Below are positions 2,921-64,000 of a DNA stretch of 64,000 bases, piece by piece. Location: sequence record NC_041871.1; one strand, given 5' to 3'. The notes below the pieces were generated by a model. It searched no databases. It was not told the DNA's origin and saw nothing but the letters and a program-made list of their open reading frames with translations. This DNA is from Escherichia phage Murica. The position numbers and the translations under genes are program-made. How positions within the stretch are numbered: the first letter of the stretch is position 1; each line of letters begins with the position of its first letter.

Positions 2921-4105
2921 TTAAGCTTTAGCCAAAATGGCGCTAAACTCTTCACCAAACTCTTTTACAATCTTCATCAGGTTTGGGTATGCTTTGATCA
3001 GCTGAGCAACAATCTTGTCACGCCCTTTACCGATAAGCAAGGCATTTCCTAAGGCATTAGGTTTCATCATCGCCATAAAGACTGAGAATACAAAATCTCG
3101 GTTCTCGTCCTTGAAGTTTTCCCAAAGGAAATCGAGGAAGTTTGCCACGCAGCTGACAAGATCTTCGTCTGAGATACTTGCATTTTCCATCATATTGCGA
3201 ATAGCGATACAACCTTCAGATCCAAGAATCCACAAAATGTCTGGCTGCTTAGGACCTACGTATTCTTTGCAGCCACCTGCCATAATCCGACCGATTTCCG
3301 GTAAATTACGTTTCTTGGTGTGGTAAGTCCAGATCTCTACCGCTGCAGTGTGACCAATAGCACCTTGTAGAAGAACACGGGCCATAGCGTCAGAAATAAT
3401 ACCGCTGTCAAAATCGTGCAAGATGTCAGATGCAGCAACCCAAGATCGTGGTGTGGCAAAAGATGGACAATTAATCTCAGCCATAGCCTCATAATTATCA
3501 ATAGCTGATGGAACTCTTTTCAGATACCCAATTACAGAGGAGTGAACCCCGTTGAGGAATGCGTAGTCCTCAATAAACACCTCTGCATTGCTTGTAACCT
3601 CTACAATGATAAAACGGTTAGCCAGAGGGGCTTCGAGCGCCGAAAGAACCGCACCATCTGTAGAACGGTTACCCGCAGCCACAAAAACAGAACCCTTAGG
3701 GAATGCATAGGTGCCGCACTTGTGGTCAAGCATAATTTGCATTGCAACCTTTTGCAGGTAGTTATCTGCATGAGTGAGCTCATCCAGAAAGATAATTCCG
3801 CTCCAGTCAGGATCCGCAGGCCAAAATTCTGGAATTGCAAACACTGTACGTGTAGTTCCATCCGCTTCTACAGGGATAGGTAGCCCAGATAAGTCGGCAG
3901 GATCTTTATCTGACAGTCGCACGTCAACAAGGTTGTCATCTCGCTCACCGAACATATTATCAGCGATCTGCTTCATCACCTGGCTTTTACCCACACCCAT
4001 TGGTCCCAAAATTAGGACAGATCGGCTATGACGTTGGGCAAACTGAATAATAGCTGGCAACTCACGGACAGTGATTTGACCACTTTCGAATACGTTTCTT
4101 GACAT
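2921..4105 (-). CDS. AAA+ ATPase, MoxR/CbbQ/CobS-like (AAA_5-type)
   Basis: Walker A GPMGVGKS, Walker B IIFLDEL, sensor-1-like VAAGN. 394 aa. Confidence 0.7.
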   Translation of the reverse strand: MSRNVFESGQITVRELPAIIQFAQRHSRSVLILGPMGVGKSQVMKQIADNMFGERDDNLVDVRLSDKDPADLSGLPIPVEADGTTRTVFAIPEFWPADPDWSGIIFLDELTHADNYLQKVAMQIMLDHKCGTYAFPKGSVFVAAGNRSTDGAVLSALEAPLANRFIIVEVTSNAEVFIEDYAFLNGVHSSVIGYLKRVPSAIDNYEAMAEINCPSFATPRSWVAASDILHDFDSGIISDAMARVLLQGAIGHTAAVEIWTYHTKKRNLPEIGRIMAGGCKEYVGPKQPDILWILGSEGCIAIRNMMENASISDEDLVSCVANFLDFLWENFKDENRDFVFSVFMAMMKPNALGNALLIGKGRDKIVAQLIKAYPNLMKIVKEFGEEFSAILAKA

Positions 4106-4374
4106 TAGTAAAAGTCCTCTACTTGTGTGTAAGTGTTTTCAAAGTTTTCCAAAACAGATATCACATCGAATCTGTCAATATCATACGTGACTCTCCAGTT
4201 GTACGCAACCCTTTCTGCTGTTGCCTCTTCTGGCGCTAGTCGTCTGCTGGCATAAAAGAGTGTTGGAGTACACTTTCTTGCTTGCCCTCTAACTTTCCCA
4301 TAATAATATCTGTGAATATCTTTGTCAAAATTTAACTCTTTTTCTGCACGAAGTTCATATTGCTGGTATAACAT
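4105..4374 (-). CDS. hypothetical protein, 89 aa
   Basis: ORF in operon context; start overlaps the upstream stop (translational coupling). Confidence 0.4.
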   Translation of the reverse strand: MLYQQYELRAEKELNFDKDIHRYYYGKVRGQARKCTPTLFYASRRLAPEEATAERVAYNWRVTYDIDRFDVISVLENFENTYTQVEDFY

Positions 4375-4418
4375 CTCTACTACTCCTTAAGCAGCATCCT
4401 TGCCGCCATTCCTGCCCA

Positions 4419-4799
4419 CTAAAATGCAGTCCGAATCCAGACAAGGTTCTTATCTGCCCAATCATAGAGGCAAGTCATTGCACTATTGAATTGCTCACAC
4501 GGAGGATAATCTTCTTCCATCTGGCGCATAGCAGAGCCTTGTGGGTAAAGCTCCCGTGCTGCAAACCACGCGTCGTAGTCATCAACGGTGTCGAAGTAGT
4601 ATACAACATCCTCTAACTCAGGATCGAACTTTGAACTATCAGGATCCAGTTGTTCAGGGAACTTGGAGCGTAACTTGCCAGCCACAATACTTGCCAACTC
4701 GCTAACATGCTTATTGTCCCACTCCACTAGCTTCCCGTCTTCAGTGATGCGTCCTAACCACTGATCATGAAGGTCAACTGTTGTCTTCCACTGAGCCAT
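4419..4799 (-). CDS. hypothetical acidic protein, 126 aa
   Basis: ORF in a compact early operon; D/E-rich composition. Confidence 0.45.
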   Translation of the reverse strand: MAQWKTTVDLHDQWLGRITEDGKLVEWDNKHVSELASIVAGKLRSKFPEQLDPDSSKFDPELEDVVYYFDTVDDYDAWFAARELYPQGSAMRQMEEDYPPCEQFNSAMTCLYDWADKNLVWIRTAF

Positions 4800-4801
4800 T
4801 A

Positions 4802-5059
4802 TCAGTCCACCTCTTCTTCTCGTTGTAGTTCAAGATACCCGTAGGTCTGGACATCTTGAAGGGTGTGGAACTCCCCCTCTGCCGCTAAGGCACGAACAAC
4901 TTGGCACAAAACCTTATGAGGAACTTCATCCAAACCTAGATTCAGTGCAGGAAACACCTTATCTAAGTCAACAAAATAAACGAACTGTAGCTCACCAGCT
5001 TCAAAAGGTGTATCTTCAATAAACATCTTCTCGGCATTAGTCAAGATCTGCACTTTCAT
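4802..5059 (-). CDS. hypothetical acidic protein, 85 aa
   Basis: ORF, tightly packed; acidic C-terminus (QREEEVD). Confidence 0.4.
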   Translation of the reverse strand: MKVQILTNAEKMFIEDTPFEAGELQFVYFVDLDKVFPALNLGLDEVPHKVLCQVVRALAAEGEFHTLQDVQTYGYLELQREEEVD

Positions 5060-5415
5060 TATTCTACCTCCTCTTCTTTTTCTTCGGCATTAGTTTCATG
5101 GCTACCCCACTCGGGAGTTTCCACCTCGATAGTAAACTCACGCACTACACGGTAATTGCCCATGAAGCGCTCTACTTCGTCAAGGCTTATGGAGAGGCCA
5201 TTGGCAACCAGGTCTGCAGCACCCTCTTCTACCAGGTAGTCCAGATTGGCTTCCAGAGCCTCAGGTTCAAACCCTGTCAATGCAATCAGATAACCTTCCC
5301 CTTCATCAGGGAGGACAATACAGCCCAATTGATTTTCTTTAAAAAGGCAGTGACCATCATTATTGATTGGGTGTTCATTGCAGTAAATAGCTGCACGATA
5401 AGTAACTTTAGACAT
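5059..5415 (-). CDS. hypothetical highly acidic protein (start trimmed to MSKVTYRA)
   Basis: Track ORF 5059-5436. ATG at 5413-5415 has GGAG 9 nt upstream and sits inside the 29-bp repeat. Strongly E/D-rich with a poly-Glu C-terminus. Confidence 0.45.
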   Translation of the reverse strand: MSKVTYRAAIYCNEHPINNDGHCLFKENQLGCIVLPDEGEGYLIALTGFEPEALEANLDYLVEEGAADLVANGLSISLDEVERFMGNYRVVREFTIEVETPEWGSHETNAEEKEEEVE

Positions 5416-5420
5416 CGGTA
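5392..5420 (-). repeat. 29-bp exact repeat, copy A (inverted relative to copy B at 7254-7282), spans the start codon
   Basis: Reverse complement of 5392-5420 equals 7254-7282 (TACCGATGTCTAAAGTTACTTATCGTGCA). Confidence 0.9.
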
Positions 5421-5428
5421 AGGTCTCC

Positions 5429-5707
5429 TTAGGCAATTGTCATTTTACATTCTTGAAATTTTAACACAAGACGGTGATTGTGTCTAGTGTCTAAAAAGAT
5501 TTTTTCAACCATCAGGCACACGGTATAACCGTCCATCTTGTTGACAACAAAATCTCCAGGATGAGGGAGGATGTCTCCCGGATTGGGGAAACATAGTCCA
5601 CTCAGAAAGGCATCGTCAGTGGTGGACTTAATAGATTTCCACACACTGTCTGCCTGAACATGTTCACCGACGTAATATACATTACCACATGCCTTCATCA
5701 TAGTCAA
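5429..5707 (-). CDS. hypothetical protein, 92 aa
   Basis: ORF in operon context. Confidence 0.4.
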   Translation of the reverse strand: MTMMKACGNVYYVGEHVQADSVWKSIKSTTDDAFLSGLCFPNPGDILPHPGDFVVNKMDGYTVCLMVEKIFLDTRHNHRLVLKFQECKMTIA

Positions 5708-6603
5708 ACCCTCGCATAAATTAAACTTGTATCAGTATACTTCTTTAATGGGTAAATATCCTGTCCATAGATGCAATCATTAAACACCTCATCTACCCAA
5801 AGGCTACACTTATATCCCATCATTTCTAAAACACCCATCTCTTCTTCGGTAAACTTATCACCGCTCTTGCAAGATGTCAATACCTCATTCTGAACTCTTG
5901 CTACCTCGAAGCGGTTATTGGCAATATCGCTATTGGCGATCAAATACTCACCTAGAGGGTGTGCGGCATTAAAGATGCACAGTGGACGGCTGACGTAATA
6001 GTCTCCAGGTGTATAAAAATTGTTGAGGTCTTTCACTAGAACATTCTTATCAGTCACTTCATTTATAACATCATGCATATCGCACATCTTTATATGTTTG
6101 AGGATTCCATCCCCCATCACAAAATAAAAACTTGCTGAGACACTTTCGGCATAGATCTTACTAGATCCGTTGTAGTTGTATTTTACTCGGATGCTAACGG
6201 GGGTTTTTCCTGTCGCGTTAGCCATCATCCAAAGAAATGGCAGCTCATACTTCTCCTCTGAGGAAACAAAAGGTGAGGTAGCCAGAGATCGAAAACCTCC
6301 AGAGAAGTTGAAAGTTACAGAACCGCTCCGGCGGTATGATACCGCGTATTCTACTTTTATATCGACATACCCATTGGAATAGGTGTGTCCTTCATTATCT
6401 AAATATGTCCACTTATCAGACCCAGATACCAATCTACGCTCAATAACCTTCATCACTATAGGAATTAATGGGTTGGTACAAACCGCTTTTGAAGTAGCTT
6501 TATCATCTAAAGCCTCGTAAATTGCAGAAAGGATGTCCCCAGCTGAAAGATTGGTTGTTATGTCCTGTTTCCACCGCGTACTAAAACTGTTAAGATTTGC
6601 CAT
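5704..6603 (-). CDS. hypothetical protein, 299 aa (first gene of the minus-strand accessory operon)
   Basis: ATG at 6601-6603 preceded by AGGAG; sits directly downstream of the minus-strand promoter. Confidence 0.5.
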   Translation of the reverse strand: MANLNSFSTRWKQDITTNLSAGDILSAIYEALDDKATSKAVCTNPLIPIVMKVIERRLVSGSDKWTYLDNEGHTYSNGYVDIKVEYAVSYRRSGSVTFNFSGGFRSLATSPFVSSEEKYELPFLWMMANATGKTPVSIRVKYNYNGSSKIYAESVSASFYFVMGDGILKHIKMCDMHDVINEVTDKNVLVKDLNNFYTPGDYYVSRPLCIFNAAHPLGEYLIANSDIANNRFEVARVQNEVLTSCKSGDKFTEEEMGVLEMMGYKCSLWVDEVFNDCIYGQDIYPLKKYTDTSLIYARV

Positions 6604-6643
6604 AAGTAAGTGCTCCTATGTTAGTTTTCTTTCGAATGGGTGC

Positions 6644-58062: not shown

Positions 58063-59610
58063 TTAGATAAAACGCTTGAACATAGAAGGTGATGAGATTG
58101 ATGGAATCACACAAGGAAGTGCTACCTCCTCTTTCTCCAGGAAATTAATCGCAGAAGCTACACAGTCTGCCCAGTCGTCTTTTCTGTTAAATGTTGATCT
58201 TTCTCCGTTGAATTTTTCAAGTTCAGTCAGAAATGCTTCCAGAGTATCAGGATGGAAACTGGATTTTACAATCCTCACCATTCCTTGTTGTGCAAGATTG
58301 GCAAAAGGTGAGAACCTTGTCAGTTTAGATTTGTTGGAAGGCATTGGGTCTTCTTCAACCCTGAACCCTTCGGCGAGCAAGGATCTGGATGAGGTTAAGA
58401 ACTCACTCTTACCTGCCTGACCAGGGTCCACAGAGAATACGATTATGCAATCATCACCATCAAACTGCGCCTGTTTCCTGATGATCACATCTCGTTCACC
58501 AGCCTTTTTACAGAACTTGCCTTCCAGACCTGTGGAATACCTCCCGTCATCCACGTTCTCAGGACAATAATCACCGGACAGGTAATAAAAGCCGTCGCTA
58601 TCTTTACTTACCTTAATACTGGCGGTAAAGTCAGGAAATTTATTACCGGAAGTTCTCTCGGTTCCTGCCTTATCCCATGCCCTGCAAGATACTGATCCAA
58701 TGGGTACTCTATCGGCATCACGAAGGAAAGATCTTTGAAAATAGTTTGCACCCTCAGGCTTTGCAAACCAGTTACCATGAAGAAGCTGAGCTTTTTCCAG
58801 TTCCGGCAGACCTTCAAGGAAAGCAAGGTATTCTGGGTTGTCTCTTAAGCAGACAGGATTATCGAATATTGTTGCGCCTATAAACGAGAATGACAACGGT
58901 CTTGGCTTGATCTCTACGCCAAGTCCGTTAACCGTGGTGTATTTCTCTATCAACTCTTCTTTAGAGTCTCCCCAGATAAATTCACCGTCGCGTCGGATAA
59001 AATATCTTTTCTTACCGCATTTCTCCGGATCTGGATACCCTTCATCGTCCAACCACCATCTAACCAGTTTGGCAAGCATGTGTTCTGAATCGGGGTTACA
59101 GCTGATAACCATTCTTGATGGATACTTTGACTGAGATCGCAGACGAGACATCAGATAGTCTATCTGCTCCCATTCGAACTGCGTGCCCTCATCGAAGCAA
59201 ACCATGGTGTACTCAAGCCCCTGATGGTTAAGCTTATCTTGTACATACTCCATATGGCAGTATTTTACAACAGCTCCCTTTTTGCTTCTATCCCACTTAC
59301 CAGTGTTCGGATCAAACCGTGGAAAAATGAACTTATGATCCTTCTCTCTGAACTTTGGCTTAATGTTTTCAGGCAGATCACTGTAAATAGCTACTGCTTT
59401 AGGCCATAGTCCACCCTCACCTTCCAACTGTGGGGTTGTTCTTCGGAACATAACCACAGAGCTGTGGGGGTCATCAATAATTTTAAGTGGCATCAACTGC
59501 AAGAGGAACGACTTGCCAGACCCTGCGGCACCGCCGATTACCAAAATATCTGCATCGTTTTCTAGGATCATCTTCTGCTTTTCAGAACACGGTCCGTAAA
59601 TCTTAGACAT
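58063..59610 (-). CDS. terminase large subunit
   Basis: Walker A GGAAGSGKS near the N-terminus, Walker B-like MVCFDEGTQF, C-terminal nuclease-like region with acidic residues; 515 aa. Confidence 0.85.
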   Translation of the reverse strand: MSKIYGPCSEKQKMILENDADILVIGGAAGSGKSFLLQLMPLKIIDDPHSSVVMFRRTTPQLEGEGGLWPKAVAIYSDLPENIKPKFREKDHKFIFPRFDPNTGKWDRSKKGAVVKYCHMEYVQDKLNHQGLEYTMVCFDEGTQFEWEQIDYLMSRLRSQSKYPSRMVISCNPDSEHMLAKLVRWWLDDEGYPDPEKCGKKRYFIRRDGEFIWGDSKEELIEKYTTVNGLGVEIKPRPLSFSFIGATIFDNPVCLRDNPEYLAFLEGLPELEKAQLLHGNWFAKPEGANYFQRSFLRDADRVPIGSVSCRAWDKAGTERTSGNKFPDFTASIKVSKDSDGFYYLSGDYCPENVDDGRYSTGLEGKFCKKAGERDVIIRKQAQFDGDDCIIVFSVDPGQAGKSEFLTSSRSLLAEGFRVEEDPMPSNKSKLTRFSPFANLAQQGMVRIVKSSFHPDTLEAFLTELEKFNGERSTFNRKDDWADCVASAINFLEKEEVALPCVIPSISSPSMFKRFI

Positions 59611-60713: not shown

Positions 60714-60790
60714 TGGTCTCCACGGAGTGATTCGAACACTCGACCTCCTGATCCCAAATCAGGCGCTCTACCAAGCTGAGCTACGCGGAG
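60714..60790 (-). tRNA. tRNA-Pro (anticodon UGG)
   Basis: Hand-folded cloverleaf: 7-bp acceptor, D arm GCTC/GAGC, anticodon loop TTTGGGA, T loop TTCGAAT, encoded CCA. Confidence 0.7.
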
Positions 60791-60801
60791 TATTTATTAT
60801 T

Positions 60802-60876
60802 TGGTGGCCCTGGGTGGAATTGAACCACCGTCTGGCGATTATGAGTCGCTTGCTTGAACCTTCCAGCTACAGGGCC
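60802..60876 (-). tRNA. tRNA-Met or Ile2 (anticodon CAU)
   Basis: Perfect 7-bp acceptor GGCCCTG/CAGGGCC, anticodon loop CTCATAA, T arm GGTGG-TTCAATT-CCACC, encoded CCA; G1-C72 pair argues against an initiator. Confidence 0.65.
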
Positions 60877-60877
60877 T

Positions 60878-60953
60878 TGGTGCTGATGGCAGGACTTGAA
60901 CCTACAACCTATTGATTACAAATCAATTGCACTACCGATTGTGCTACATCAGC
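60878..60953 (-). tRNA. tRNA-Thr (anticodon UGU)
   Basis: Perfect acceptor GCTGATG/CATCAGC, anticodon stem ATTGA/TCAAT with loop TTTGTAA, T loop TTCAAGT, encoded CCA. Confidence 0.7.
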
Positions 60954-60958
60954 AAAAA

Positions 60959-61057
60959 GGTGCTAGGTGATGGAATCGAACCACCTATGTATTCAACGAC
61001 TACCTCGTCTATTTTCAGGATTAAAAATCCTCGCCCTTGCCAAAGGGCTTACCTAGC
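60959..61057 (-). tRNA. atypical tRNA-like element (99 nt): tRNA acceptor, D and T arms, but no canonical anticodon arm
   Basis: Perfect 7-bp acceptor GCTAGGT/ACCTAGC, D arm GCCC/GGGC, T arm GGTGG-TTCGATT-CCATC. The intervening 47 nt form two small hairpins (AGGAT-TTTTT-ATCCT and ACGA-GGTAG-TCGT). A Lys (UUU) reading needs a mismatched stem and a 29-nt variable region. Confidence 0.4.
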
Positions 61058-61154
61058 TCAGTATGTTGACCATGTTGCTAGTCGGCGATGACGACTGTAA
61101 CATTTGATAATCCGGTTCTGCTTCCGGCTTTCGCTTAATTACAAGGTCAACAAT

Positions 61155-61246
61155 GTGGCGGAGAGTAATGGAATCGAACCATCATCGAGTCATCCTCAAC
61201 GGGACGGTTTTCAAGACCGCTTGAGCACCATTGCTCCCTACCCTCC
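61155..61246 (-). tRNA. tRNA-Ser (anticodon UGA), type II
   Basis: 92 nt, acceptor GGAGGGT/ACTCTCC, anticodon stem GCGGT/ACCGT with loop CTTGAAA, long variable arm, T loop TTCGATT, encoded CCA. A TATAAT -10 lies 7 nt upstream. Confidence 0.65.
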
Positions 61247-61360
61247 TTTATAAATTATACTGATAATGACACTGATTTTCGAGCAGTTAGTGACTAGTAT
61301 AAACGACGATAAATATCAATGCCATTATCTGTATTATTTATGCATCTAAAAATATAAATT

Positions 61361-61447
61361 TGGTGGGGAGTGGTGGAGTCGAACCACCCGAGTCGCAATG
61401 ACAATAGATTTACAGTCTACACCGCTACCTCTACGGGATAACTCCCC
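61361..61447 (-). tRNA. tRNA-Tyr (anticodon GUA), type II
   Basis: 87 nt, acceptor GGGGAGT/ACTCCCC, anticodon loop CTGTAAA, T arm GGTGG-TTCGACT-CCACC, encoded CCA. Confidence 0.65.
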
Positions 61448-61451
61448 AATT

Positions 61452-61526
61452 TGGCACCCCGTACTGGACTCGAACCAGTGTCAACGGCTTAGAAGGCCGC
61501 TGCTTTATCCACTAAGCTAACAGGGC
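61452..61526 (-). tRNA. tRNA-Arg (anticodon UCU)
   Basis: Acceptor with two G-U pairs, D arm GCTT/AAGC, anticodon stem GCGGC/GCCGT with loop CTTCTAA, T arm ACTGG-TTCGAGT-CCAGT, encoded CCA. Confidence 0.6.
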
Positions 61527-62624: not shown

Positions 62625-62834
62625 TCAACAGATTCCGGCCTTATCCTTCCTGTCTGCGTATTCTTTAATCGCAACCTCATCTGCATTAGTGACCAGGTCT
62701 TCAAAGTAACTCTCAAGCTCCTCGTCAATGTCAGGAGACCAGCTCTTTTTCCTGTCAGTGTGAATTGCAGACTTGTTGAACTTATTACAGTTCTTTGCTA
62801 CCGGGTTGTTCATTAAGCGCTCCTCAGCGTTCAT
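62625..62834 (-). CDS. hypothetical protein, 69 aa
   Basis: ORF coupled to the upstream gene. Confidence 0.3.
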   Translation of the reverse strand: MNAEERLMNNPVAKNCNKFNKSAIHTDRKKSWSPDIDEELESYFEDLVTNADEVAIKEYADRKDKAGIC

Positions 62835-63402
62835 AGTAAATCTTATTTAACATTACCTCATCCTTTGCAGAAAGGATATCAAGATATGCATCACCAAATC
62901 TTCCTGCAACAACCTCTGCATGATACATCACTTCGTTAACATCGTCAAGAGTGATAACCGGATGACCATATCTTTCTGAATATTGTCTCAGGGTGCGATG
63001 TAACGAGTCGTCATCATATGCAGACTTTTTAATATCACAAACACGACGAATAGCCTTGATGTCGAAAAAACCTGTGCGATACCACCCAAGAAAAAGGTTT
63101 CGTGCAGTGTCAACATCTACATTGATACCATCAAGAACCTTATCTACAAGATAGCTGTCATCCTTTGGACCAGCGTCCTTAGTGCGAATGTAGTTGCCAT
63201 CTTTTCCAGGCGACATCTCCTTCTCATCCCCAACATGCATGCCATCATTTGGCGGTGTTAGCCACTTATCCGGATGCTTACGATCACGAGCGTTAGAATG
63301 ATTACGCTGGAAACCTGGCTTCCACTTGAAAGTTTTCTCCATCTGTTCTTCATTCTGATAACGTTTTGCAATCTTTTCACGGTCATCTTTGCGTGGACTC
63401 AT
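62824..63402 (-). CDS. hypothetical protein, 192 aa (first gene downstream of the regulatory region)
   Basis: ATG at 63400-63402 with GAGGAGG RBS; basic, Lys/Asp-rich. Confidence 0.45.
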   Translation of the reverse strand: MSPRKDDREKIAKRYQNEEQMEKTFKWKPGFQRNHSNARDRKHPDKWLTPPNDGMHVGDEKEMSPGKDGNYIRTKDAGPKDDSYLVDKVLDGINVDVDTARNLFLGWYRTGFFDIKAIRRVCDIKKSAYDDDSLHRTLRQYSERYGHPVITLDDVNEVMYHAEVVAGRFGDAYLDILSAKDEVMLNKIYYER

Positions 63403-63422
63403 AGCTGCCTCCTCTTCAAGTT

Positions 63423-63464
63423 ATAGAAAAACTCGCTGTATCGCTTTGTAACGAGCTTTTCTAT
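63423..63464 (-). promoter_or_regulatory. long hairpin in the 5' leader of the 62824-63402 gene
   Basis: ATAGAAAA-A-CTCG … CGAG-C-TTTTCTAT: 8-bp plus 4-bp stem around a 16-nt loop. Confidence 0.4.
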
Positions 63465-63509
63465 CAAACTGGTGCGATTGCCTTACTTGGTATAGTTTAT
63501 ATGGCTGTG

Positions 63510-63750
63510 GAGCGATTTAGGGGCCTCATTGTCCGTTTCCACACATAAACTTTATCCAAACTCGCGCGGGAGGCTCTCAACCGACTCCTTACGGCGCTGG
63601 CAAGCTTTCGTCGGTGGTCCACATTAGTGCTCGGCCTTTGGCCTGCGCCGCTTCGCTCCCACACATGTTAACAGACCTGCATGTGTGCACTATGGAGGCC
63701 CGGCATCTCGCCCCTCGTAGGCGAGTGCCAATGAAGGGCCGACACTACCT
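63510..63750 (-). other. second GC-rich hairpin-dense noncoding island (candidate structured RNA or regulatory region)
   Basis: No ORF of 60 aa or more; hairpins at 63643-63653 (GGCC-TTT-GGCC), 63660-63687 (CACACATG … CATGTGTG, 8 bp), 63707-63725 (CTCGCC-CCTCGTA-GGCGAG). Confidence 0.35.
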
Positions 63751-63772
63751 ATAGAAAGTAATAAATTTAAAA

Positions 63773-63842
63773 CATGGTACTTAGGATCTAGTATATTCTA
63801 CATAAGTTAAGTATATGTACTTAGTACCATAAGTACTAGATC
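63773..63842. repeat. AT-rich cluster of short inverted and direct repeats
   Basis: GATCTAGTA at 63785-63793 and its reverse complement TACTAGATC at 63834-63842; GGTAC/GTACC; TACTTAG twice. Confidence 0.6.
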
Positions 63843-63884
63843 TTTTATTTTTTATTATTTAGTTATTTTAGTTATATTCTTTAT
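63843..63884. repeat. AT-rich tract with short direct repeats (AGTTATTTT x2), candidate DNA-unwinding or UP-like element
   Basis: Near-pure A/T run TTTTATTTTTTATTATTTAGTTATTTTAGTTATATTCTTTAT immediately beside the palindrome array. Confidence 0.5.
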
Positions 63885-63967
63885 GTGTCCGTATCACGGA
63901 CAGTTAGTGTCCGTATTACGGGCAGATGTGTCCGCGTGACGGACAGTGGTGTCCGTATCACGGACAG
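63885..63967. repeat. array of four 19-bp palindromic repeats at 21-22 bp spacing (candidate operator or iteron array)
   Basis: 63885-63903 GTGTCCGTATCACGGACAG; 63907-63925 GTGTCCGTATTACGGGCAG; 63928-63946 GTGTCCGCGTGACGGACAG; 63949-63967 GTGTCCGTATCACGGACAG. Core GTCCGT-N3-ACGGAC is a perfect inverted repeat in copies 1 and 4. Confidence 0.85.
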
Positions 63968-64000
63968 TTAATAGTTTCTGTTCCATGGTGAACATAAAAC

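Follow-up and report, generated by a model that had tools for sequence, protein, structure and literature searches.

A putative replication origin in an rV5-like phage, with four phased iterons, an AT-rich tract and the candidate initiator gp075

Positions 63773-63970 of the 64,000-nucleotide stretch of Escherichia phage Murica analysed here (NC_041871.1, referred to below as the window) form a module which, with a probability that we put at roughly three in four, is the (theta-type) replication origin of an rV5-like phage, resembling ori-lambda and the origins of RepA_N plasmids. The module includes four palindromic iterons, an AT-rich tract directly beside them and a nest of short inverted repeats, and it lies downstream of the gene for gp075, a small winged-helix protein and the candidate initiator. 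Judged by nucleotide identity, the window is rV5-like and belongs to the genus Vequintavirus: its last 1.2 kb share 98% identity with Escherichia phage rV5 (NC_011041), and their identity to over 110 further Vequintavirus records is 90-98%. In the rV5 genome paper the origin had been sought by skew analysis and was not definable, all skew changes following the direction of transcription (Kropinski et al., PMC3606486), and literature searches found no description of an origin or of iterons in Vequintavirus phages.

Four phased iterons beside an AT-rich tract

A sequence-only reading of the window had noticed four palindromic copies spaced by 21-22 bp at this place, and both a repeat finder and a motif search bear it out. 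The array (63885-63970, no strand) is made of direct-repeat units at 63885-63906, 63907-63928, 63928-63949 and 63949-63970, which start 22, 21 and 21 bp apart, are 77-100% identical to one another and each enclose a dyad, so that at least three dyad-bearing direct repeats follow one another at about two helical turns and the iterons therefore lie on one face of the helix. The dyad had been described as GTCCGT-N3-ACGGAC within a degenerate consensus. A dyad is indeed found in each copy, but the third copy (GTGTCCGCGTGACGGACAG) does not fit that consensus, and comparison of relatives and other phages gives the conserved form as TGTCCG-N5-CGGACA instead. Cores of this type occupy 63886-63902, 63908-63924, 63929-63945 and 63950-63966, the one at 63908-63924 being degenerate and ending in ...CGGGCA, and the central five nucleotides of the iterons read TATCA, TATTA or CGTGA.

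When at most one mismatch is allowed, the motif GTCCG-N4-ACGGNC gives eight strand hits in the 64-kb window, every one of them inside the array; shuffled sequence gives a mean of 0.79 hits and none of 100 shuffles reaches eight, which excludes chance. Across the whole rV5 genome (137,947 bp) the 17-mer core is found at the four array positions only, the next-best sites carrying three to four mismatches. Being confined to one rV5 locus, with no further copies at other regulated genes, the core is therefore not a dispersed operator, and the worry that the motif might prove a common dispersed repeat can be laid aside.

Directly beside the iterons lies the candidate DNA-unwinding element (63843-63884, no strand), delimited by composition and nearest-neighbour stability. 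It had been called AT-only; in fact 39 of its 42 bases are A or T (93%; T30, A9, G2, C1), and it is T-rich on the plus strand, hence A-rich along the direction in which gp075 is transcribed. Among 42-, 60- and 100-bp windows it has the highest AT content and the lowest stability both in the 64-kb window and in the rV5 genome, with a nearest-neighbour free energy of -48.3 kcal/mol per 50 bp against -52.6 for the next-lowest window and a rV5 mean of -66.7 (standard deviation 3.8).

The short inverted repeats reported at 63773-63842 (no strand) were also recovered, by the repeat finder and by reading of the sequence: 63774-63784 pairs with 63820-63830 (11 nt, 91%), and GATCTAGTA (63785-63793) pairs with TACTAGATC (63834-63842). 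The pairs ATGGTACTTAG/CTTAGTACCAT and GATCTAGTA/TACTAGATC are interleaved rather than nested, repeated GTACTTA/TAAGTAC motifs are found among them, and a role of this nest as a loading or cruciform site is possible.

gp075, and the iteron core in other viral contigs

No binding protein had been identifiable in the window, and rightly so, since the candidate is encoded just past its edge. The gene rv5_gp075 lies on the minus strand at the window-equivalent positions 64042-64392, its stop codon falling 42 bases past the window end and 71 bp from the array, which is thus located downstream of it. The array had been placed upstream of a minus-strand gene block, and this is correct as regards gp073 (minus strand, 62824-63402); it is at the same time 71 bp downstream of the minus-strand gp075. 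A sigma-70-type promoter (TTGACA-18-TATTTT, with TG) is present 35-64 bp upstream of gp075.

gp075 is a winged-helix protein of 116 amino acids, labelled “replication initiation protein” in RefSeq and “putative transcriptional regulator” in most GenBank records. It matches PHROG 12838 and, more weakly, 8102, 428 and 270, families that all bear the name “replication initiation protein.” When compared with all PDB sequences, its sole significant match is 4RO3 (E 2.5e-6, improving to 5.6e-11 when a profile of 15 family members is used). This structure is the N-terminal domain of RepA, the initiator of PLE, a phage satellite of Vibrio cholerae (Barth et al., PMC7145576). A single-sequence AlphaFold2 model was unusable (predicted local distance difference test, pLDDT, 43), and the model built from an alignment was used instead (pLDDT 79, predicted template-modelling score 0.77). 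With this model Foldseek again returns 4RO3 at the top (E 4.5e-5, template-modelling score 0.66, 116 columns), followed by 4PQL, 4PT7, 5KBJ and 4PTA, so that gp075 appears to have in common the fold of the RepA_N or DnaD N-terminal domains, and it is encoded immediately upstream of the iterons, as is the N-terminal winged helix of an initiator.

These best matches, which extend over the whole length of gp075, are initiators of the RepA_N type (PLE RepA, 4RO3; pSK41/pTZ2162 Rep, 4PQL, 4PT7, 4PTA and 5KBJ), whose N-terminal winged-helix domain of ~120 amino acids dimerises and binds semi-palindromic direct repeats. PLE RepA, which by its structure is a member of the RepA_N family, binds a semi-palindromic origin iteron, as established by electrophoretic mobility-shift assay and deletion analysis (PMC7145576). 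The 120 N-terminal residues of pSK41 Rep form the domain that binds four Rep boxes, which are located directly after the coding part of this domain; the central, ori-encoded part can be dispensed with, and DnaG primase is bound by the C-terminal domain (PMC5703833). gp075 would thus have the size and fold of an iteron-binding domain, and the four boxes after its gene are placed as boxes are in RepA_N replicons. Contrary to the centres of the module (TATCA, TATTA and CGTGA), however, it is usually a poly-A tract on which RepA_N iterons converge, and RepA_N proteins carry an essential, genus-specific C-terminal domain that is absent from gp075, which also has no Pfam RepA_N match.

The comparison with ori-lambda is equally instructive. 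That origin has four 18-bp iterons, each with a dyad symmetry of its own, over ~87 bp and a 38-bp AT-rich sequence where DnaB loads (PMC3349717); the rV5-like module has four 17-bp dyads over 86 bp and a 42-bp AT tract, and the order along transcription is likewise DNA-binding-domain coding region, iterons, AT tract. On the other hand, the lambda iterons are inside gene O, and the C-terminal domain of O recruits P-DnaB, whereas gp075 stops 71 bp before the iterons, without a helicase-recruiting C-terminal domain and without a Pfam Phage_rep_O match. The iteron sequence differs as well, and the module sits in a 138-kb virulent myovirus that has its own T7-like replisome.

The strongest evidence for the origin class is that the motif taken from rV5 led to replication-initiator genes elsewhere. 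A scan of IMG/VR with the pattern TGTCCG-N5-CGGACA-N(4-5)-TGTCCG gave 35 loci, 21 of which have arrays of 3-7 sites; none of these is a Vequintavirus, their contigs have a GC content of 36-70%, and their sites are nearly all 19-25 bp and mostly 21-23 bp apart. The arrays sit within open reading frames (ORFs) of 133-532 amino acids, directly 3′ of a match to the helix-turn-helix family HTH_36 (PF13730) wherever one was found (5 of the 12 ORFs tested). Ten of those 12 have matches among PHROG families that carry the names “replication initiation protein,” “replication initiation O-like” (a further likeness to lambda) or “DnaD-like helicase loader,” including PHROGs 270, 8102 and 428, which gp075 also matches. 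An hhalign comparison of the gp075 family with one such initiator gave 87% probability over the helix-turn-helix and wing, with a weaker result for another. L052, an AT-rich contig, encodes an initiator akin to the O-like proteins found in Vibrio, Stx-converting and Salmonella phages. Examples of the arrays are found at 6316-6460 of locus L037, 4906-5071 of L032 and 2065-2169 of L041.

With these initiators (L030, L039, L050, L052, L054 and others) the rV5 module has in common an identical core, a spacing of 21-23 bp and an array located 3′ of the helix-turn-helix segment. One group of contigs (L028, L030, L031, L039, L040, L043, L050 and L059) comes particularly close, its members having precisely four sites and an initiator that is short (133-225 amino acids) and ends ~25 codons after the array; versions reduced to the DNA-binding domain therefore exist elsewhere. 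The differences are that the array of these contigs is inside the ORF while that of rV5 is intergenic, and that identity to gp075 is 14-20%. Sequence comparison thus makes it appear that diverged HTH_36-type initiators use one recognition core. In plasmid pPR9 the RepA_N domain and the origin have jointly been replaced by a Pfam13730 helix-turn-helix of phage origin, and the replicon works (PMC5703833). gp075, at a borderline score, pPR9 Rep and five of the tested IMG/VR initiators all match PF13730, and gp075 and the viral initiators have PHROG families in common. Membership of the module in this looser HTH_36/O-like class is accordingly a qualified one, held at borderline scores and backed by the predicted fold and the common iteron.

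Searches starting from gp075 itself reach less far. A protein-pattern scan of IMG/VR found nothing, a word-based protein search returned Vequintavirus-level relatives only, and an exhaustive HMMER search added a few distant matches, two of them spurious (Ig-repeat and low-complexity proteins). Metagenomic homologues of 182-217 amino acids have an extra C-terminal region. In their loci (L020-L025) the homologue is the second or third gene after a divergent intergenic region of ~500 bp. In that region an AT tract is accompanied by a pair of CAGGTACA repeats spaced by 22 bp, which is suggestive, but TGTCCG sites are absent. The extra region is seen in homologues P0010, P0011, P0014, P0015 and P0021, several of which have an acidic tail ending in ...(A/E)PF. 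Such a tail recalls the tip that bacterial SSB and T7 gp2.5/gp4 have at their C-terminus and that contacts replisome partners, and it offers a lead on how the longer members of the gp075 family recruit the replisome. The neighbouring gp073 was considered as a detached initiator C-terminal domain, and this idea found no Pfam, PDB or BLAST support.

Selection, rival explanations and a proposed mechanism

How the module varies was followed in an alignment of 15 Vequintavirus genomes and metagenomic contigs. Among the 15 relatives, the half-sites of the iterons vary in 2 of 48 columns and the inter-site spacers in 1 of 13, compared with 7 of 20 for the central five nucleotides of the sites; the AT tract varies in 3 of 45 columns and the inverted-repeat nest in 6 of 75. 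Directly beside the near-invariant array, the 30 nucleotides separating it from gp075 within the window (63971-64000, minus strand, the first part of the 71-bp spacer) are hypervariable, with 18 of 30 columns affected. In the most distant relatives identity is still 97.5% for the array and 94-95% for the AT tract plus inverted repeats, against 86-87% for the gp075 coding sequence. Read from the alignment, the pattern bears the mark of a dyad contacted by protein, set in a non-coding module under selection.

This bears on the idea that the module is a decaying replicon from a temperate phage or a plasmid, the initiator having lost its C-terminal half and the sites their function, while rV5 starts replication otherwise, for example in a transcription- or recombination-dependent manner as do T7 and T4. 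A gp075 reduced to the DNA-binding domain, iterons outside the ORF unlike in most of the motif class, a distribution limited to one genus and absent from the sampled sister groups, and a T7-like replisome (PMC3606486) would all suit it. Yet the array, the AT tract and the inverted repeats are more conserved than nearby coding sequence and changes avoid the half-sites, which therefore indicates purifying selection and not decay; moreover, gp075 is intact in 117 of 117 matching phage records, and the equally short initiators of other viral contigs end just after four sites. Decay is thus a very improbable account.

A second alternative, raised already by the sequence-only reading, is a multi-operator array for transcriptional control. 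gp075 would then be a repressor or roadblock with four operators after its own gene, blocking read-through into gp073-gp069 and the tRNA cluster, or regulating an unrecognised phage-specific promoter in the AT-rich and inverted-repeat region. The protein is small, of the winged helix-turn-helix type and named as a putative regulator in many records, its secondary matches include regulators, and a scan for terminators detected no terminator-like site at the array or between gp075 and the downstream genes, so that a protein roadblock could matter. Iteron-binding initiators, too, often double as regulators. pSK639 has been discussed in this respect (PMC5703833). However, scans limited to sigma-70-like promoters, and so blind to phage-specific types, found none on either strand of 63300-64000 or in the rV5 equivalent; no operator is therefore seen to overlap or flank a promoter, and the supposed repressor array has none to act on. 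The sites also lie downstream and not upstream of the regulator gene, and the lack of any other motif copy in the genome means that there is no regulon. Transcriptional control would in addition leave unexplained why the array adjoins the most extreme AT tract and why the same phased motif recurs in the initiator genes of other contigs, and the full-length fold matches of gp075 are to initiator domains rather than to regulators. As a substitute for the origin the control array is unlikely, but an operator or roadblock role could coexist with origin function.

A third alternative makes the array a packaging (pac) site or a centromere-like partition site, with gp075 as a site-specific adaptor, the partition variant implying persistence as an extrachromosomal element in carrier cells. 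The circular permutation of rV5 DNA implies that packaging is headful and starts at a pac site (PMC3606486), the array is ~4.3 kb from the large terminase gene, an rV5-like genome has been deposited as a circular 137.6-kb E. coli “plasmid,” and the ends of three metagenomic contigs fall within the array or shortly past it. Against this, the fold of gp075 is that of initiator DNA-binding domains and not of small terminases or ParB/ParR, no partition ATPase is found beside the array, and a circularly permuted phage assembles as a circle anyway. The contigs in question (L017, L018 and L019, with ends at 3005, 3019 and 1839) stop in the array or the AT tract at three different positions, and in all likelihood their ends mark where assembly broke off, at the repeats or in the 93% AT tract, rather than physical termini of the DNA. 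There is accordingly little to recommend the packaging or partition reading, and the idea of a pac site or of a small terminase (TerS) was rejected because of the fold. The deposited circle itself (plasmid pRHB39-C03_2, 137,565 bp, from a cattle-faeces E. coli; CP057073.1, locus 99515-105744) has an origin module 96% identical to that of the window, and may represent either a carrier-state culture or a permuted phage genome assembling as a circle.

Some observations nevertheless weigh against an origin. The Pfam scores of gp075 fall just under the curated cut-offs (27.2 bits against 28 for DUF6945, and 24.5 against 25 for HTH_36), and at E <= 1 the protein has no match to RepA_N (PF06970) or to Phage_rep_O. 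Small winged-helix proteins are also commonly repressors, and among its secondary matches, by sequence and by fold, gp075 has regulators of the CodY, MarR/SlyA and CRP types. The missing C-terminal domain matters too, since that of pSK41 Rep is essential and recruits primase. In GAP31 and phi92, aligned by synteny anchored on the phosphoesterase gene, the gene order is different and there is neither a gp075 homologue nor a repeat array; being absent from these sampled sister groups, the module cannot be an ancestral origin. A phage-database protein search likewise found gp075 in Vequintavirus records only, and on this distribution the module looks like a genus-specific acquisition. Finally, the global minimum of the cumulative GC skew of rV5 does fall close to the array, which corresponds to ~65.1-65.2 kb of rV5: it lies at 66.0-66.75 kb, 1.5 kb away, but this is also where the genes change from the minus to the plus strand (66.7 kb), and other inflections likewise track gene orientation. 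The minimum therefore says little on replication, and the skew check suggested by the sequence-only reading is compatible with an origin without being informative.

On balance, the proposal that iterons plus an AT-rich unwinding element mark an origin gains support from the matches of gp075, from the recurring arrays and from the confinement of the motif to one locus, although gp075 binding, DNA melting, helicase loading and origin activity itself are steps that we infer. In such an origin, gp075 would be made early from its own sigma-70-type promoter and would be the counterpart of the DNA-binding and dimerisation domain of RepA_N/O-like initiators, its dimers occupying the four TGTCCG-N5-CGGACA iterons on one helix face. 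RepA_N domains bend their boxes by ~30 degrees and oligomerise (PMC5703833); the gp075-iteron complex would similarly bend the DNA and melt the adjoining 42-bp AT tract. The rV5 replisome, which is T7-like (PMC3606486), would then load at the opened tract: a primase-helicase resembling gp4 (rv5_gp225), an SF1B helicase (rv5_gp232) and a polymerase of the PolA type (rv5_gp223). It may be partly through the conserved nest of inverted repeats that gp075, without a C-terminal domain, recruits this machinery. The module is unusual in comparison with most initiators considered here: its initiator amounts to a DNA-binding domain alone, and both iterons and unwinding element are intergenic. In ICP1, which has a related replisome and an origin mapped near 60 kb, inspection of that region disclosed no obvious equivalent module.

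Because gp075 is a DNA-binding domain without a recruiting domain, the module is perhaps no conventional self-contained origin, and three other readings can be put forward which even jointly are improbable. The first is a replicon of plasmid type, or a device for copy control, that would serve the persistence of a “virulent” phage in carrier cells. It could also be an arms-race interface, in which a common code lets satellites or competitors hijack or poison origins, as with ICP1 and PLE; the 231-bp module has no copy in 5,426 E. coli chromosomes, and there is therefore no resident satellite with exactly this region among them. Lastly, the neighbouring GC-rich element of ~330 nt could be an origin-associated structured RNA, either a primer or a regulator.

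Genomic surroundings and significance

This conserved, GC-rich (~55%) non-coding stretch (63420-63750, minus strand) lies between the origin module and gp073. A gene, ORF78/gp074, is annotated there in rV5 only, most annotations showing none, and relatives have indels of 18, 3 and 1 nt. Its folding z-score is -2.65 on both strands, with little covariation at 90-98% identity, and no Rfam family matches it at gathering or permissive thresholds; as a known RNA it was therefore rejected, the folding score being modest and the same on both strands. It may represent an RNA or else belong to the origin region, its membership in the module being uncertain. Within it, a hairpin of 13-15 bp (63423-63464; ATAGAAAAACTCG...CGAGCTTTTCTAT), directly upstream of the gp073 ribosome-binding site and kept in all relatives, may be an RNA processing or attenuation element.

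Further along the window, a cluster of seven tRNA genes (60714-61526) includes a 99-nt tRNA-like gene on the minus strand (60959-61057), to which ARAGORN assigns a four-base anticodon (atcc). It scores 35.5 bits with the Rfam tRNA model, is annotated as tRNA-Lys in phage Alma, and may have an intron or an unusual anticodon loop. The large terminase gene (58063-59610, minus strand) is a single ORF of 515 amino acids, while in rV5 it is in three segments with an inserted HNH endonuclease gene, a difference that probably explains most of the ~1.26-kb offset between window and rV5 coordinates. Some other AT-rich windows of the rV5 genome are found at 104,013-106,618 (4013-6618 of locus L007), 2.6 kb without an annotated gene where plus- and minus-strand gene blocks converge, and which the rV5 paper labels “non-coding” (PMC3606486). 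Among the relatives, 18 “Campylobacter phage” records (MG0656xx series) are 95-96% identical over the region and 98-99% in gp075, and their host label looks doubtful.

The design proposed for this origin is a familiar, lambda-like one, and what is new is most likely its location in this phage group. The origin of rV5, left unsolved in the genome paper, now has a candidate site of 200 bp and a candidate initiator, in phages that are in wide use for typing E. coli O157 and in collections for phage therapy. An initiator made of the DNA-binding domain only raises the mechanistic question of how a T7-like replisome would be recruited. Beyond this genus, TGTCCG-N5-CGGACA at two-turn spacing is a usable signature for the annotation of phage origins, and since the core is common to unrelated elements, cross-recognition between them is possible.

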